Part shown: one piece after another, positions 6,667-61,074 of the stretch
How positions within the stretch are numbered: the stretch's first letter is position 1
Layout of the letters: every line of letters starts with the position of its first letter
NCBI RefSeq assembly: GCF_058153355.1
Contig: NZ_CM177019.1
Length of the DNA stretch: 64,000 nucleotides
Direction: 5' to 3' (one strand)
The notes under the pieces: model-generated
What the model was told of the DNA's origin: nothing
The model's input: only the letters and a program-made list of their open reading frames with translations
Database searches by the model: none
Position numbers and translations under genes: made by a program

Positions 6667-6680
6667 TGATGTGGCGTATG

Positions 6681-7132
6681 CTGATAAGACGCGTCAGCGT
6701 CGCATCAGTCAACCGGCTTGGGCGTTAGATGTCGGATGCGGCGTGACCGCCTTATCCGACCTATGGGGTGGAGCACTTCACAGCGGTGTAGGCCTGATAA
6801 GACGCGCCAGCGTCGCATCAGTCAACTGGCTTGGGCGTTAGATGTCGGATGCGGCGTGACCGCCTTATCCGACCTACGGGGTGGAGCACTTCACAGCGGT
6901 GTAGGCCTGATAAGACGCGCCAGCGTCGCATCAGGCAACCGGCTCGGGCATTAGATGTCGGATGCGGCGTGACCGCCTTATCCGACCTACGGGGTGGAGC
7001 ACTTCACAGCGGTGTAGGCCTGATAAGACGCGCCAGCGTCGCATCAGGCAACCGGCTTGGGCGTTAGATGTCGGATGCGGCGTGACCGCCTTATCCGACC
7101 TACGGGGTGCCACACTTCACGGCAGTTTAGCG
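6681..7132. repeat. Tandem array of four ~113-bp REP/BIME units in the mqo-eco intergenic region
   Basis: The motif ctgataagacgcg recurs at 6681, 6794, 6907 and 7020 (period 113 bp); each unit holds two inverted REP-like palindromes (ctgataagacgcgccagcgtcgcatcag and gatgcggcgtgaccgccttatccgacctac). Confidence 0.8.
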
Positions 7133-20350: not shown

Positions 20351-21577
<1,227 letters not shown>

Positions 21578-25309: not shown

Positions 25310-25319
25310 TGGGATTTTT

Positions 25320-25396
25320 GGTCGGCACGAGAGGATTTGAACCTCCGACCCCCGACACCCCATGACGGTGCGCTACCAGGCTGCGCTACGTGCCGA
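25320..25396 (-). tRNA. proL: tRNA-Pro (GGG anticodon)
   Basis: Minus strand reads CGGCACGTAGCGCAGCCTGGTAGCGCACCGTCATGGGGTGTCGGGGGTCGGAGGTTCAAATCCTCTCGTGCCGACCA: cloverleaf-compatible, GGG anticodon in a T-GGG-G context, TTCAAATCC T-loop, 3' CCA. Confidence 0.85.
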
Positions 25397-25469: not shown

Positions 25470-27230
25470 TCAGTTAGCGATAAAACGCTTCTCGTCTGTC
25501 AGCACCTGCAATAACAAACTTAACTGTGGTTTTTCATCTTTCACTCTTTCACCACGTAAGTTGTACGTGCGGTATTTACCGTTATTGTTCAGCACTAACG
25601 TCATTTTCGGGGTGGTAATTGCCAGCGTATCGTTATCCGCAGCAGTAACCCAGTAATGACGGCGTTGGGGGTTGAACAAATCCTGACCTTGCGAATATTC
25701 GCTGGCAGGTGTGCTGACATGTAGCAGGCGTTGCATCAGCGTCGTCATCAGATCGGTATGATCGGTCAGCGCATTAATACGCTGCGCCGGCGTGCCTAGC
25801 CAGTGAATCACTAATGGTACCTGCAGATGACCGTGGGACCAGTCAAAGGTTTCTTCCTCTTCGCTCAGCGGAATACCCCGGCCGGCAGTGATAATCACCA
25901 CCGTATTGTCCAGTTTGCCAGAATCACGCAGTGCATTGAGCACGCGGTTGATCTGGTCATCGACATTGCCTGCCGCCCGGCTATATTTCCGTGCAAATGC
26001 CTGCTGATTGCTGTCGTCAATGTTAGTGCCATTGAAAGACACCCACGAGAACCAGCGGTTATCTTCTTGTGCGTAGCGGCCCAGCCAGTTGATCCACTGC
26101 GTGGCGGTCTGCTCGTCGGATTGGGTACGTACGCTCGGCATCGAGAAATCTGACAACAATGCCTGGCGATACAGCGGGCTGGTAAAGCCATCTGACGAGA
26201 ATAACCCCAGCTGATAGCCTTGCTGATTAAGCGCAGTAATTAACGCCGCAGGCGTACGGGTCGACAGAATGCCGTCCATATAGCTTGGCGAGATGCCATA
26301 GAACAGGCCAAAGATGCCGTTGTCTGTAGTGTTGCCGGAGCTCATATGGCGCGTGAACGAAATATTTTGCTCAGCAAAACCTGCCAGCGCAGGCATCTGC
26401 TTCTCGAAGCGTGAGTAGTTCAGGCCATCGACAGTAATCAACAGCACATTCTGCCCGGTGCCCATATCGCGATAGCGCAGTTCGCTTAACGGATACTGAA
26501 CGGAAACGGCGTCTGGATTGCCTTGCTCAATAAGACGGCGTTGATACTCCTGCGCATCAAGCAGACCATGCTTCTCAAGAAAACGTCGCGCCGTCATCGG
26601 GTACGAAAGCGGCAGGTTAGCGCGCTGCATGGTGATCGGGCGATAGAAGTTGGCATCGGCCCAGATATACACCACATGCGATGCAATAAAAGCGATAAAT
26701 AAGAATGCGGCCAGCGGGCGCGCGAAGCGCCGACGACGCGTCAGGCTGCGTAGCTTTTGCCAGCTCCACGTCGCAAACACCAGTTCAAGCAATAAAATAA
26801 CCGGCACGCTAATGAACATCAGCTGCCAGTCGCGCGCCATCTCATTTTCGTCTGGGTTGATAACCAACTGCCAGACGATGGGATTAAGATGGAGATGGAA
26901 ACGAGTAAAGACTTCGCTATCGATCAGTAATAGCGTCATTCCCGCCGTTGCTAAAATGACGGACAAAAACCTCATCAGCCTCTGAGAGCCGACGATAAAG
27001 GTCAGCGGGAAGAGGATCAGCAAGTAGGTGGCAAACACCAGGAAGCTGAAATGGCCGATAATGCTTACGTAGGAATAAATACGACCAGCAAGCGTTGTCG
27101 GCCAGTCGGCGATAAACAGGTAACGGCTGCCAATGACGAGCGAAAGCAGAATATTGAACAGTGCAAACCAGTGCCCCCAACTGACCATCTGGGAGACTTT
27201 TTCACGGTAGCGCTGACGATGAGTTACCAT
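25470..27230 (-). CDS. yejM: Inner membrane protein YejM/PbgA (sulfatase-like periplasmic domain)
   Basis: 586-aa ORF; five N-terminal TM helices plus a C-terminal alkaline-phosphatase-superfamily domain; synteny with yejL-yejK. Confidence 0.9.
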   Translation of the reverse strand: MVTHRQRYREKVSQMVSWGHWFALFNILLSLVIGSRYLFIADWPTTLAGRIYSYVSIIGHFSFLVFATYLLILFPLTFIVGSQRLMRFLSVILATAGMTLLLIDSEVFTRFHLHLNPIVWQLVINPDENEMARDWQLMFISVPVILLLELVFATWSWQKLRSLTRRRRFARPLAAFLFIAFIASHVVYIWADANFYRPITMQRANLPLSYPMTARRFLEKHGLLDAQEYQRRLIEQGNPDAVSVQYPLSELRYRDMGTGQNVLLITVDGLNYSRFEKQMPALAGFAEQNISFTRHMSSGNTTDNGIFGLFYGISPSYMDGILSTRTPAALITALNQQGYQLGLFSSDGFTSPLYRQALLSDFSMPSVRTQSDEQTATQWINWLGRYAQEDNRWFSWVSFNGTNIDDSNQQAFARKYSRAAGNVDDQINRVLNALRDSGKLDNTVVIITAGRGIPLSEEEETFDWSHGHLQVPLVIHWLGTPAQRINALTDHTDLMTTLMQRLLHVSTPASEYSQGQDLFNPQRRHYWVTAADNDTLAITTPKMTLVLNNNGKYRTYNLRGERVKDEKPQLSLLLQVLTDEKRFIAN

Positions 27231-28716: not shown

Positions 28717-29319
28717 TACAAGTGCGACAAGAAGTCGTCCAACATATTGTTTTGATAAATTATTTATATAAAACCAACTATTCCATTAGTTGTAGCCTAC
28801 TGAGGCAGGCAAAGCTGGTAACGGCTCTGTCTGAAGCCCTTGGGACAATGTAGCTTAGCAAATATTGCTTCAGTTAATCGTGAGAAAACCTGATCGCTAC
28901 AAGCATCATGCGGCGAGAGCGCTAGGCTGGGCGGTATGGTTAACATAGTGAACTGTCGTTAAACGTCGTAACAGAGAACGAGCCAAAGATGCTGATAGGC
29001 TTGCACCAAAAGGTAAGGGGTAAGGCTATTCCTGTTCGTAGTGGGAATACATGGACAATAACTCCCCCGGCGGATAGACAGAACCTAACCCGTTCTTTGT
29101 ATGTTGGTCGGAACTTGGTAAGCCCGAATTCTCGCCCTAGTGGCAGGGGCACCGTAAGGCAAACTGATGAGAATGCGGGTAAAGGAGGATGGAAAAAGCG
29201 AAAGCCGGACTGTAATCGTGCGGATAGAGGTTCAATATTTGCCTTAACGGGAAACCGTGCTGACTTCCATCTGGTCTTTAATTGCGAAACATCTGCGAAG
29301 GTTTCTTTGGATGACATGT

Positions 29320-30999
29320 ATGAAAATTACATCTAACAATGTAACTGCGGTCATCAACGGAAAAGGTTGGCATTCCATTAACTGGAAGAAATGCCATCAA
29401 CACGTTAAAACCATACAGACAAGAATCGCAAAGGCGGCATGTAACCAGCAATGGCGTACAGTCGGTAGATTGCAACGATTGCTGGTTCGCTCATTCAGCG
29501 CCAGAGCACTGGCGGTGAAACGAGTTACGGAAAATAGCGGGCGTAAAACCCCCGGAGTTGATGGTCAAATCTGGAGTACTCCAGAATCAAAATGGGAAGC
29601 GATATTCAAACTCAGGCGAAAAGGGTACAAGCCCCTACCGCTAAAAAGAGTTTTTATACCCAAATCTAATGGCAAGAAAAGACCATTAGGAATCCCCGTC
29701 ATGCTTGACAGGGCAATGCAGGCCCTGCATCTGCTGGGATTGGAGCCTGTATCGGAAACTAATGCAGATCACAACAGTTATGGTTTCAGACCAGCGCGAT
29801 GTACGGCTGACGCCATTCAACAGGTATGTAATATGTATAGTTCCCGGAACGCCTCGAAATGGGTTCTGGAAGGCGATATTAAAGGATGCTTTGAACACAT
29901 TAGCCACGAGTGGCTGCTTGAAAATATTCCTATGGACAAGCAAATACTCCGTAATTGGTTGAAAGCCGGGATCATCGAAAAAAGCATATTCAGCAAAACT
30001 CTCTCGGGTACACCCCAGGGAGGAATCATATCTCCAGTTCTGGCAAACATGGCCCTGGATGGACTGGAAAGACTGCTGCAAAATCGCTTTGGTCCGAAAC
30101 GCTCAAAAACATTCAGGAAACATCAGGTTCACTTCGTCCGGTATGCTGATGATTTCATCATTTCCGGAAAGTCGAAAGAACTTCTGGAGGAGAATGTTCT
30201 TCCGTTGGTGAAATCATTTCTTGCAGAAAGAGGGCTGACGTTATCCGAAGAGAAAACGGTCATCACTCACATTACTGACGGATTTGATTTCCTTGGGCAG
30301 CACGTCCGACGCTTCGGTAGAAAACTCATAATCAGACCAGCCAAGAAAAACGTTAAACAATTTCTTAGCAAGATCAGAGAGACTATTGAAGGTAACCGAA
30401 CGGTTCCTGCATGGGTGCTAATAAATCTGCTTAATCCAATCATCACCGGGTGGGCAAACTATCACCAACATGTAGCATCGGCAGAGACATTTAACTATGT
30501 CGACAACCAAATCTGGCGCAAAATCTGGCAGTGGTGCAGAAGGAGACATCCCGGCAAAGGCCGGAGATGGATCTTCCGAAAGTACCACACGACAATAAAA
30601 ATGTGTCATGGTCGATTTTATGGAGTCGATCCGGAGGGTAGGAAATATGTTCTGTCCCGGGCCAGCGACATCCATATTAATCGCTATATAAAAATAAAGG
30701 GAACGGCAAATCCATATGATCCCGAGTGGGAAACATACTTCGAAAGAAGGCTGGACTACTCATGGAAGAAATCCCAACAGGGGCAGAAAAGGATTCTCGC
30801 TATATGGAAAAGGCAAGGATCGCGCTGCCCTTTATGTGAGCAACCGATTAATCGCGATACAGGATGGAATGTTCATCATTTGCTCAAGAAATCTCTTGGC
30901 GGTAGCGATGATGTGAGCAATTTAGTCCTACTCCATCCCAACTGCCATCGACAACTACATAGTAATGACGCTGGTCTCCCACAAGGTGGAGGCTTATAA
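29320..30999 (+). CDS. Group II intron-encoded protein: reverse transcriptase / maturase / HNH endonuclease
   Basis: RT motifs (KKRPLGIPVMLDRAMQ, FVRYADDFIISG), a maturase X region, and a C-terminal HNH (CPLCEQPI...WNVHHLLKKSLGGSDDVSNLVLLHPNCHRQLH). Start codon uncertain: ATG at 29257, 29311 or 29320. Confidence 0.88.
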   Translation: MKITSNNVTAVINGKGWHSINWKKCHQHVKTIQTRIAKAACNQQWRTVGRLQRLLVRSFSARALAVKRVTENSGRKTPGVDGQIWSTPESKWEAIFKLRRKGYKPLPLKRVFIPKSNGKKRPLGIPVMLDRAMQALHLLGLEPVSETNADHNSYGFRPARCTADAIQQVCNMYSSRNASKWVLEGDIKGCFEHISHEWLLENIPMDKQILRNWLKAGIIEKSIFSKTLSGTPQGGIISPVLANMALDGLERLLQNRFGPKRSKTFRKHQVHFVRYADDFIISGKSKELLEENVLPLVKSFLAERGLTLSEEKTVITHITDGFDFLGQHVRRFGRKLIIRPAKKNVKQFLSKIRETIEGNRTVPAWVLINLLNPIITGWANYHQHVASAETFNYVDNQIWRKIWQWCRRRHPGKGRRWIFRKYHTTIKMCHGRFYGVDPEGRKYVLSRASDIHINRYIKIKGTANPYDPEWETYFERRLDYSWKKSQQGQKRILAIWKRQGSRCPLCEQPINRDTGWNVHHLLKKSLGGSDDVSNLVLLHPNCHRQLHSNDAGLPQGGGL

Positions 31000-31005
31000 A
31001 GGCTT

Positions 31006-31039
31006 GAGCGGTATGCGGGGAAACTCGCACGTACCGTTC
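31006..31039 (+). ncRNA. Group II intron domain V (catalytic hairpin)
   Basis: GAGCGGTATGCGGGGAAACTCGCACGTACCGTTC: a 34-nt hairpin with the AGC triad, 2-nt bulge and GAAA tetraloop typical of domain V, directly after the intron ORF stop. Confidence 0.75.
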
Positions 31040-31118
31040 TTAGGGGGCGGCGAGACAGTAATGAATCGCTGCTACCCGACAAAATAGCAATACCGTAATC
31101 AGGCATAATTTGCAGATA

Positions 31119-57954: not shown

Positions 57955-58614
57955 TTACTGCATCATCCCGGAGAATTTATTCTCCGGGTCCATCTCCAGC
58001 GCCAGCCCTAACAACTGCTTTCTGTTTTTAATTAAATACCCTTTCTTACTTTTAATTAATAAACCGTCGTGAATGAGTTGAGCGATCACATATAGTAAGT
58101 GACGATAAGTAACACCTAAATACTCTGCTGCCTGGGTATGTTTTTCGTGATAAAGATCACCTTCCTGCGAGAGTAATATAAATGCTGCCAGGCGATTCAC
58201 TAACGGAAATGATTGATTCTGAGTTAAAGAAACAATATTGCGATAATTTTTATGGCTTAAAGTAACGCAGAGTTTTCGTAAAAATAGCGTGTCGTTTAAT
58301 AACAGCGGACGGTAATTTTTCATGGGGAGTGCAAGGCACCAACACTCTTCAATCGCCTGTACCGCTCGTGGTTCATGATCTTTATCGATTAACTCAATCT
58401 CGCCAATAAAACAGGGTGCAGCAAAGAAATCAATCAGCGACACGCGACCATTAGCAAGCGTGGCGTAAAGCCTGGCGCGGCCTCGCGTCAGGTAAAACAG
58501 CCATGACGGCTGTTGCCCTTCCTGCACAATGTAGTCACGCGCTAAAAAATGAAACAGCCGTGTATCGGCTGAAACATCCGTTGAAAAGCAATCCTTATAC
58601 GCGGACTCACTCAT
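57955..58614 (-). CDS. yeiL: CRP/FNR-family transcriptional regulator YeiL
   Basis: ~219-aa ORF with a cNMP-binding-like domain and C-terminal HTH; start at 58614 chosen by length (alternative 58653). Confidence 0.85.
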
Positions 58615-58782
58615 CAATTGCTGCTTAAGATCATTATTGTGGATTTCTTTCACGATGTTTATCCGCTATGAGATTTCTCATATTTAGCATACGTACGCTG
58701 TTGTTAAGATTCAATCATCGGCCCGGTCGAATTTTCTTTGCTGTAGAAAAAATAACACAACTGGAAACAGAGGAAATAAACA

Positions 58783-59724
58783 ATGGAAAAGAGAAAAATT
58801 ATTCTGGATTGTGATCCGGGTCATGATGATGCTATTGCCATAATGATGGCCGCGAAACATCCGGCGATTGATTTATTAGGTATCACTATTGTGGCGGGGA
58901 ATCAAACCCTCGATAAAACATTAATTAATGGCCTGAATGTTTGCCAGAAACTGGAGATTAATGTTCCGGTTTATGCGGGGATGCCGCAACCCATTATGCG
59001 TCAACAAATCGTTGCCGATAATATTCACGGTGAAACCGGGCTGGATGGTCCGGTATTCGAACCGCTGACTCGTCAGGCAGAAAACACCCATGCGGTGAAA
59101 TATATCATCGATACCCTGATGGCAAGCGATGGCGATATCACTCTGGTGCCGGTTGGTCCGCTTTCAAATATCGCGGTGGCAATGCGTATGCAGCCCGCAA
59201 TCCTGCCGAAAATCCGTGAAATTGTACTGATGGGCGGCGCTTACGGTACTGGCAACTTCACCCCATCTGCCGAGTTCAACATTTTTGCTGACCCGGAAGC
59301 CGCACGCGTGGTGTTCACCTCCGGCGTTCCATTAGTGATGATGGGCCTCGATCTCACCAACCAGACCGTTTGCACTCCGGACGTGATTGCACGGATGGAA
59401 AGGGCAGGCGGCCCTGCCGGAGAGTTGTTCAGCGACATCATGAACTTCACTCTGAAAACCCAGTTCGAAAACTACGGTCTGGCTGGCGGCCCGGTACATG
59501 ACGCCACCTGTATCGGTTATCTGATTAACCCCGATGGTATTAAAACCTAGGAGATGTACGTCGAAGTGGACGTCAACAGTGGCCCTTGTTACGGGCGTAC
59601 CGTCTGCGACGAGCTGGGCGTTCTTGGCAAGCCCGCCAATACCAAAGTCGGCATCACTATTGATACCGACTGGTTCTGGGGATTAGTCGAAGAGTGCGTG
59701 CGCGGCTACATCAAAACCCATTAA
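58783..59724 (+). pseudogene. rihB: Pyrimidine-specific ribonucleoside hydrolase RihB interrupted by an in-frame amber (TAG) codon at 59548-59550
   Basis: N-terminal DPGHDDAIA hydrolase motif; the reading frame continues uninterrupted after the TAG for 58 more codons ([57 protein letters not shown]), giving the expected 313 codons in total. Confidence 0.8.
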
Positions 59725-59823: not shown

Positions 59824-61074
59824 ATGGATGTCATGAGAAGTGTTCTGGGAATGGTGGTACTGCTGGCAATTGCGTTTTTGCTGTCAGTAAACAAGAAGAA
59901 GATCAGCCTGCGTACCGTTGGCGCGGCGTTAGTGTTACAGGTCGTGATTGGCGGCATTATGCTTTGGTTACCGCCAGGGCGTTGGGTCGCAGAAAAAGTC
60001 GCTTTTGGCGTGCATAAAGTGATGGCGTACAGCGACGCAGGTAGCGCATTTATCTTCGGTTCTCTGGTTGGACCGAAAATGGACACCTTATTTGATGGCG
60101 CAGGATTTATCTTTGGTTTCAGGGTATTACCGGCAATTATCTTCGTTACAGCACTGGTGAGTATTCTCTACTACATCGGTGTGATGGGGATCTTAATTCG
60201 CATTCTCGGCGGTATATTCCAGAAAGCGTTAAATATCAGCAAGATCGAGTCATTCGTCGCGGTCACTACCATTTTCCTCGGGCAAAACGAAATTCCGGCA
60301 ATCGTCAAACCCTTTATCGATCGTCTGAATCGCAATGAATTATTTACAGCGATTTGTAGCGGGATGGCCTCGATTGCTGGTTCGACAATGATTGGTTACG
60401 CCGCACTGGGCGTACCAGTGGAGTATTTGCTGGCGGCATCGTTAATGGCGATTCCCGGCGGGATCTTGTTTGCCCGCCTGTTAAGCCCGGCTACGGAATC
60501 TTCTCAGGTTTCCTTTAATAACCTCTCTTTCACCGAAACACCGCCAAAGAGCATTATTGAAGCCGCTGCGACAGGGGCAATGACCGGGCTGAAAATCGCT
60601 GCGGGTGTGGCGACAGTGGTGATGGCATTTGTCGCCATCATTGCGTTGATCAACGGTGTTATCGGCGGCGTTGGTGGCTGGTTTGGTTTTGAACATGCCT
60701 CGCTGGAGTCCATTTTAGGTTACCTGCTGGCCCCGCTGGCGTGGGTGATGGGTGTTGACTGGAGTGATGCGAATCTTGCCGGAAGTTTGATTGGACAGAA
60801 GCTGGCGATTAATGAATTTGTCGCTTACCTCAATTTCTCACCCTATCTGCAAACGGCTGGCACTCTCGATGCTAAAACCGTGGCGATTATTTCCTTCGCG
60901 TTGTGCGGTTTCGCTAACTTTGGTTCTATCGAGGTGGTGGTTGGTGCATTTTCTGCGGTTGCGCCACACCGTGCGCCGGAAATCGCCCAGCTTGGTTTAC
61001 GCGCGCTGGCGGCGGCGACACTTTCTAACCTGATGAGTGCGACCATTGCCGGGTTCTTTATTGGCTTAGCGTAG
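59824..61074 (+). CDS. nupX: Nucleoside transporter NupX (NupC/CNT family)
   Basis: 416-aa ORF (MDVMRSVLGMVVLLAIAFLL...), highly similar to psuT along its whole length. Confidence 0.9.
   Translation: MDVMRSVLGMVVLLAIAFLLSVNKKKISLRTVGAALVLQVVIGGIMLWLPPGRWVAEKVAFGVHKVMAYSDAGSAFIFGSLVGPKMDTLFDGAGFIFGFRVLPAIIFVTALVSILYYIGVMGILIRILGGIFQKALNISKIESFVAVTTIFLGQNEIPAIVKPFIDRLNRNELFTAICSGMASIAGSTMIGYAALGVPVEYLLAASLMAIPGGILFARLLSPATESSQVSFNNLSFTETPPKSIIEAAATGAMTGLKIAAGVATVVMAFVAIIALINGVIGGVGGWFGFEHASLESILGYLLAPLAWVMGVDWSDANLAGSLIGQKLAINEFVAYLNFSPYLQTAGTLDAKTVAIISFALCGFANFGSIEVVVGAFSAVAPHRAPEIAQLGLRALAAATLSNLMSATIAGFFIGLA

Follow-up and report, generated by a model that had tools for sequence, protein, structure and literature searches.

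A premature amber codon at a Dcm site of rihB in Escherichia coli, probably produced by deamination of 5-methylcytosine

Organization of the rihB locus

The DNA analysed here is a single stretch of 64 kb, hereafter the window, which carries on its plus strand a broken copy of rihB (also named yeiK), a ribosylpyrimidine nucleosidase gene whose frame of 313 codons extends from position 58783 to position 59724. The gene is flanked by yeiL (57955–58653, minus strand) and nupX (59824–61074, plus strand), and the order yeiL-rihB-nupX-yeiI is the same in strains 2014C-3075, N96 and K-12 MG1655. As a side observation on this neighbourhood, nupX is absent from several B2-like haplotypes (those of loci L002, L004 and L028). 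The rihB frame opens with an ATG at 58783 and comprises 255 sense codons (58783–59547) before it reaches an amber codon, TAG, at 59548–59550 (Q256*), so that the ORF listed for the 5' part covers 58783–59550. The same frame continues on the same strand into a 3' remnant (59551–59724) made of 57 sense codons (codons 257–313, 59551–59721) and a terminal TAA (59722–59724). The initial annotation of this DNA had described an amber codon splitting rihB into a 255-codon ORF and 58 downstream codons, and the count of 57 sense codons plus TAA bears this out. Owing to the TAG at codon 256, the uninterrupted 313-codon frame is absent from the window, and its rihB is a pseudogene rather than a functional member of the family.

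The identity of the gene is supported by several lines of evidence in addition to synteny. The 5' ORF encodes most of the nucleoside-hydrolase fold, and its translation contains at residues 9–16 the calcium-binding motif DCDPGHDD, corresponding to the N-terminal DXDXXXDD fingerprint described for these enzymes (PMC8910321, PMC10526354). The domain PF01156 (IU_nuc_hydro) is recorded on an identical 255-amino-acid product in public contigs. With NF007417, a RihB equivalog model of 313 positions, the 5' fragment scored 585.7 bits over profile positions 1–255, above the cut-off of 459, and the 3' fragment matched positions 257–313 with 119.4 bits. Once the stop is restored, the protein aligns to the structure of E. 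coli YeiK/RihB (PDB 1Q8F) over all 313 residues (E = 8e-214). The restored window copy is thus the same, also in its genomic context, as the pyrimidine-specific ribonucleoside hydrolase RihB/YeiK (PDB 1Q8F, 3B9X and 3MKM), from which the actual copy differs in being cut at codon 256; the cost annotated for this truncation, the C-terminal 58 residues (256–313), agrees with the two NF007417 pieces.

The 3' remnant itself contains an ORF of 56 codons that starts at the ATG at 59554, and in many public assemblies remnant ORFs of 56 and 52 amino acids are called as separate genes. We considered the idea that the mutation had created a new start for the 3' fragment and rejected it, as the AGGAG-ATG arrangement is also found in the wild type and leaves zero spacing between the motif and the ATG.

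An ungapped alignment with the intact rihB of strain 2014C-3075 over 942 nt revealed 14 differences, namely 12 synonymous changes, the substitution M20I and C766T, which converts CAG to TAG and is the sole disabling change in the window's allele. The lesion is therefore the single-nucleotide change initially proposed, with neither frameshift nor deletion. The residue I20 of the window's protein is also the one found in the crystallised protein. In agreement with the annotated recent inactivation, the nearest intact allele adds only this one missense difference, and the 3' remnant bears no further damage. The exact rihB allele of the window was found in no complete E. coli genome of the collection searched, in which the best intact allele is 98.5% identical to it. 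More broadly, rihB matches in this collection fall at 95–99% identity in 3,176 genomes and at 90–95% in 2,244 genomes, which delineates deep haplotype classes. Intact alleles have CAG at codon 256, the codon from which the initial annotation had most simply derived the stop, and both K-12 and N96 have the C, within CCAGG, at this site; the T was thus derived in the window's lineage.

Dcm context and authenticity of the base change

The initial annotation made no mention of the context in which the mutation lies. In intact alleles, codons 255 to 257 read ACC-CAG-GAG and contain the sequence CCAGG, a Dcm site (CCWGG), whose inner C is the base replaced by T at 59548. The site has thereby decayed to CTAGG (59547–59551), and the change is a G:C-to-A:T transition. 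The altered C occupies what would be the methylated cytosine position of CCAGG. Enumeration of CCWGG motifs in the stop-restored rihB of the window returned one site only, at gene positions 765–769. A stop can be reached in the restored gene by 81 different single-base changes, 14 of them transitions, and the C-to-T change of this site's inner C, at codon 256, is one. The Dcm context would account both for codon 256 having been struck and for the repeated appearance of this allele in E. coli.

We then looked at Dcm sites over the whole window. In the unpolarised comparison with N96, transitions are found at 4 of 310 Dcm targets versus 601 of 31,721 other C/G positions. When changes were polarised with K-12, the window's lineage had changed at 2 of 156 Dcm targets versus 100 of 17,451 other C/G positions (odds ratio 2.25, p = 0.23). 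Neither comparison, with N96 or with K-12, reveals a significant general excess of C-to-T changes at Dcm sites across the window, so the hotspot signal comes solely from the recurrence within rihB described below. The window-wide test neither supports a hotspot nor points to sequencing errors affecting the motif at large. Just one further C-to-T change at a Dcm site is specific to the window's lineage, at position 25798 in yejM/lapC (ORF 25470–27230, minus strand), an essential gene, where CCAGG on the minus strand has become CTAGG and Pro has been replaced by Leu (HWPG to HWLG), the 586-amino-acid ORF remaining intact.

Dcm-methylated CCWGG motifs are spots of systematic error for nanopore base callers, and the position of the T within such a motif could suggest a miscall, of assembly or of base calling, in a rihB that is in fact intact, a possibility already raised in the initial annotation. 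A Logan contig (L003), a k-mer assembly built directly from the reads of run SRR31441161, however matches the window at every one of 10,218 bases, T included, which makes a sequencing error unlikely. The contig may derive from the same isolate and would then perhaps not be fully independent. Yet the two changes among 156 ancestral Dcm targets do not draw a motif-wide error pattern, and the same allele is found in many unrelated assemblies and among proteins of early draft genomes, one of them being EFX25398.1 (O55:H7 str. 3256-97). We consider a miscall highly improbable and take the T at 59548 as real.

Recurrence of the Q256* allele

Among 5,426 complete E. coli genomes, Q256* is present in three, those of strains SCU-104, PCP07083 and HCM-26C-1, whose rihB is labelled in RefSeq as a pseudogene with an "internal stop". 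The same allele is thus already marked as a pseudogene in other genomes. These three genes carry the identical stop at the identical CCAGG, on rihB haplotypes that are 45–47 nt away from the window's allele, a distance which indicates that their Q256* arose independently of the window's lineage. When all fetched loci are considered, Q256* occurs on 12 distinct rihB alleles, which form seven haplotype groups at least 9–10 nt apart. The amber allele of the window is separated by 38–55 nt from every other amber allele and by only 14 nt from an intact one. Three other amber alleles were compared with intact counterparts (that of SCU-104, that shared by PCP07083 and HCM-26C-1, and that of L002), and in each case the two are 99.9% identical, with a single mismatch in 942 nt. 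Finally, the bases at positions -10 and +5 around the TAG are found in four combinations among Q256* alleles, so that any conversion tract shared between them would be confined to less than about 15 bp. By these measures, the Q256* alleles are independent and recent mutations.

These counts were made with care for one source of confusion. Exact look-up of the 255-amino-acid protein returned ten places encoding this product, and we first entertained the idea of reading these matches as a direct count of amber alleles. This turned out to be misleading in part: seven of the ten (L005–L011) are contig ends and were left out of the amber counts. These seven are short Logan contigs from different runs that end exactly at rihB codon 255/256, the next base, where present, being the wild-type C. 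Such ends likely reflect branching of the assembly graph at a polymorphic site in mixed samples.

Codon 98 and comparison with sites outside Dcm motifs

A second in-frame Dcm site exists in part of the rihB haplotypes. Wherever codon 97 is CGC, it forms with the following CAG the sequence C-CAG-G, and this is the case in all haplotypes that carry a stop at codon 98. Q98* was verified, as a split into 97 and 201 amino acids, on at least five haplotype groups, and it is present in 5 of the 5,426 complete genomes. The window and its closest relatives have CGT at codon 97, hence neither CCAGG at codon 98 nor Q98*. A third CCWGG of rihB, at gene position 696, allows synonymous changes only. One strain that is unrelated to the window's (L030) has both Q98* and Q256* in its rihB; two ambers in one gene fit decay rather than a function that is being kept.

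As controls, we performed exact look-ups of hypothetical truncated products, which amounts to targeted sampling and not to an unbiased census of lesions; the control set leaves aside Q41, Q55, Q69, Q74 and Q75, nonsense sites giving short products. For Q137, Q194 and W299, the ten places examined include one verified stop each, the others being contig ends. Q227 is represented by a single unverified contig, and the product truncated at W297 had no match by exact look-up. The same look-up gave no match for arbitrary truncations of 240, 250, 254 and 257 amino acids. In the complete genomes, Q194* and Q137* each occur in 0 of 5,426. To summarise the recurrence, Q256* lies on seven haplotype groups and Q98* on at least five, and none of the five sites examined outside Dcm motifs has more than one verified event. 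If only events coming from identical N-terminal look-ups are counted, 7 of 10 independent events fall on the two Dcm sites among the seven sites examined (binomial p = 0.008, to be read with the targeted sampling in mind). Other kinds of lesion were also encountered in rihB, IS1 insertions splitting the gene in at least three complete genomes (E. coli 2017-19-1CC, P377 and VL7S7).

This distribution bears on another possible origin of the stop, that is, one ancient amber allele spread by recombination, or C-to-T changes occurring by chance and unrelated to methylation, with the Dcm context a coincidence. E. coli does recombine, rihB haplotype classes are deep, and the window as a whole lacks an excess of changes at Dcm sites, all of which would be compatible with such an origin. 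On the other hand, a single travelling allele is hard to reconcile with a TAG found in four local contexts, as defined by the bases at -10 and +5, and on alleles that differ by as much as 55 nt, and with the three tested amber alleles that differ from an intact one by the single base. Chance is likewise at odds with the second in-frame CCAGG, at codon 98, being also recurrent, whereas CAG codons outside Dcm motifs are not. We regard recombination or chance as a very unlikely explanation of the Q256* alleles.

Proposed mechanism and relation to known hotspots

Taken together, these results suggest that rihB of the window is a recent pseudogene that arose by deamination of 5-methylcytosine at a Dcm site, its product being most likely inactive and its loss probably neutral, a reading to which we assign a probability of about 0.78. 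The sequence of events would be as follows. Dcm would methylate the inner cytosine of CCAGG, which is the first base of codon 256. This 5-methylcytosine would deaminate to thymine, a base that uracil glycosylase does not remove. Very-short-patch repair would then miss the resulting T:G mismatch, leaving CTAGG in place of CCAGG and TAG as codon 256. Translation would stop after residue 255, and the loss of RihB would persist as a neutral change. E. coli generally carries dcm; in the present case, neither dcm nor vsr falls within the 64 kb analysed, and we assume that this strain methylates the site. The sequence data establish the base change, its Dcm context, its recurrence and its support from reads; this methylation, deamination as the chemical event and the inactivity of the truncated protein are inferred.

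Deamination of 5-methylcytosine at a Dcm site is the most likely cause of the stop and, being a textbook mechanism, brings nothing new in mechanistic terms. Its classical example is lacI. According to the account given in PMC12606429 of the work of Coulondre et al. (1978), the amber hotspots of lacI arise at the second C of CCAGG through G:C-to-A:T changes; they are over-represented about 10-fold, and a strain without cytosine methylation lacks them. As far as this account goes, the hotspots of Coulondre, Miller, Farabaugh and Gilbert (1978) share with rihB the CCAGG motif, the second C as the mutated base, the G:C-to-A:T change to CTAGG, the in-frame amber codon and a recurrence that is specific to the site when set against other codons able to yield a stop. 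They differ, in the same account, in that they were obtained in laboratory cultures of K-12 and that their dependence on methylation was proven genetically (PMC12606429), whereas the rihB alleles are natural ones from databases, for which we assume methylation and have a rough figure for the excess in rate. The broken rihB shows neatly, in natural strains, what the 1978 work had established for lacI. It also cautions that different strains sharing one nonsense allele have not necessarily inherited it from a common ancestor. In natural bacterial populations, methylation-induced hypermutation, with C-to-T changes at Dcm-methylated cytosines in enterobacterial genomes, was reportedly the subject of a study by Cherry in J Bacteriol in 2018 (200:e00371-18), cited in PMC10710837 and PMC9241588, compared with which rihB provides a single-gene illustration and not a genome-wide estimate.

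The one mildly new point is that both in-frame CCAGG sites of rihB act, throughout E. coli, as hotspots at which ambers recur in nature. More tentatively, and with somewhat less than even confidence, we propose that these sites, at codons 98 and 256, could serve as natural reporters of Dcm-dependent deamination of 5-methylcytosine in wild E. coli, where a dispensable gene would be disabled repeatedly at these two bases. In the literature searched, we found no description of such a role for rihB, and a paper bringing together rihB and pseudogenes merely lists the gene in a table. If the proposal is true, the frequency at which very-short-patch repair misses methylation damage in the wild could be estimated from public genomes, and one could ask whether the loss of rihB is favoured in particular niches.

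Possible expression by amber suppression

The initial annotation had left room for expression of the gene through amber suppression. The codon lost is a Gln codon, so that a supE-type tRNA-Gln(CUA), or near-cognate reading by a tRNA-Gln, would insert Gln and restore wild-type RihB exactly, and the 3' remnant needed for this is undamaged. Low-level read-through of UAG with Gln indeed occurs in suppressor-free E. coli. Our results give this view no support. We found no suppressor tRNA with a CUA anticodon within the 64-kb window, whose only tRNA gene is a tRNA-Pro(GGG) at 25319–25395. Amber alleles occur sporadically and are of recent origin, those tested lying a single base from an intact twin, strain L030 has two ambers in its rihB, and RefSeq calls the allele a pseudogene with an internal stop. 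As for the undamaged remnant, it is equally expected of a young pseudogene. With the search for tRNAs limited to the window, we regard continued expression of rihB by suppression as highly improbable and favour its inactivation.

Consequences for RihB and dispensability of the gene

To assess what the truncation would remove, we relied on the published description of the fold, in which the polypeptide, past the active-site helices, forms the last strands of the central sheet, two short strands and a C-terminal helix (PMC8910321). The two short strands make up the main tetramer interface and the C-terminal helix completes the active site (PMC8910321). By our mapping onto this description, the lost residues 256–313 appear to include all three elements: the final beta-strands of the core, the hairpin of the main tetramer interface and the terminal helix at the active site. 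Without them, the 255-residue product would most likely be inactive. A single-sequence AlphaFold2 model was also tried for mapping the lost elements and was discarded as unusable (mean pLDDT of 35); the mapping rests on the published fold (PMC8910321).

The loss of this activity is expected to be of little consequence. In E. coli, deletion of rihA, rihB and rihC has no apparent phenotype, and nucleoside phosphorylases make the hydrolase activity redundant (PMC8910321). Since salvage is ensured by phosphorylases and deletion is without phenotype, the loss of rihB is probably neutral. The other lesions met in natural rihB genes (IS1 insertions, further nonsense alleles and the two ambers of L030) agree with this, and the breakage is most simply read as the neutral decay of a gene that is dispensable. 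In practical terms, the annotation of this genome should give rihB as a pseudogene with an internal stop, and RihB activity is best taken as absent from the strain; given RihA, RihC and the nucleoside phosphorylases, a phenotype is unlikely.

It could be argued instead that selection in some niches favours strains without rihB, Dcm sites being only the fastest mutational route to it. Such a view finds some encouragement in the variety of ways by which the gene is disabled (Q98*, Q256*, Q137*, Q194*, W299* and, in at least three complete genomes, IS1) and in the neighbouring nupX being missing from some haplotypes. However, disabled alleles are rare, Q256* and Q98* together accounting for 8 of the 5,426 complete genomes, and they sit at the tips, one base from an intact allele, as expected of mutations that are neutral or mildly harmful and fail to spread. 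The absence of an apparent phenotype upon deletion of the hydrolase genes (PMC8910321) also speaks against it. This reading is compatible with the Dcm mechanism and departs from our main reading in the reason given for the persistence of the allele; such selection might contribute to the recurrence but would not explain the preference for Dcm sites. We consider it unlikely and retain neutral persistence of an allele produced by deamination. A broader decay of the genome, in the manner of Shigella, was also considered and rejected, the window being collinear with N96 save for one group II intron, with no other aligned gene visibly broken.

Other features of the window

The intron in question is a complete group II intron inserted on the plus strand between yejK and rplY (28722–31080) and absent at this position in N96 and in K-12. 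It is recognised by the Rfam families group-II-D1D4-7 (28774–28921) and Intron_gpII (31004–31080), and encodes a protein of 580 amino acids (29257–30999) with reverse transcriptase, maturase and HNH domains. Between ccmH and narP, on the minus strand, lies a gene of the IS110 family that encodes the 326-amino-acid transposase of IS621 (20400–21380); N96 has an IS621 transposase gene in the corresponding place, where the annotation gives an IS110-like element of the IS621 family. Finally, the region between mqo and eco holds tandem repeats of about 113 bp (6668–7130), whose copy number is unlike that of N96, as seen from overlapping, offset BLAST alignments.
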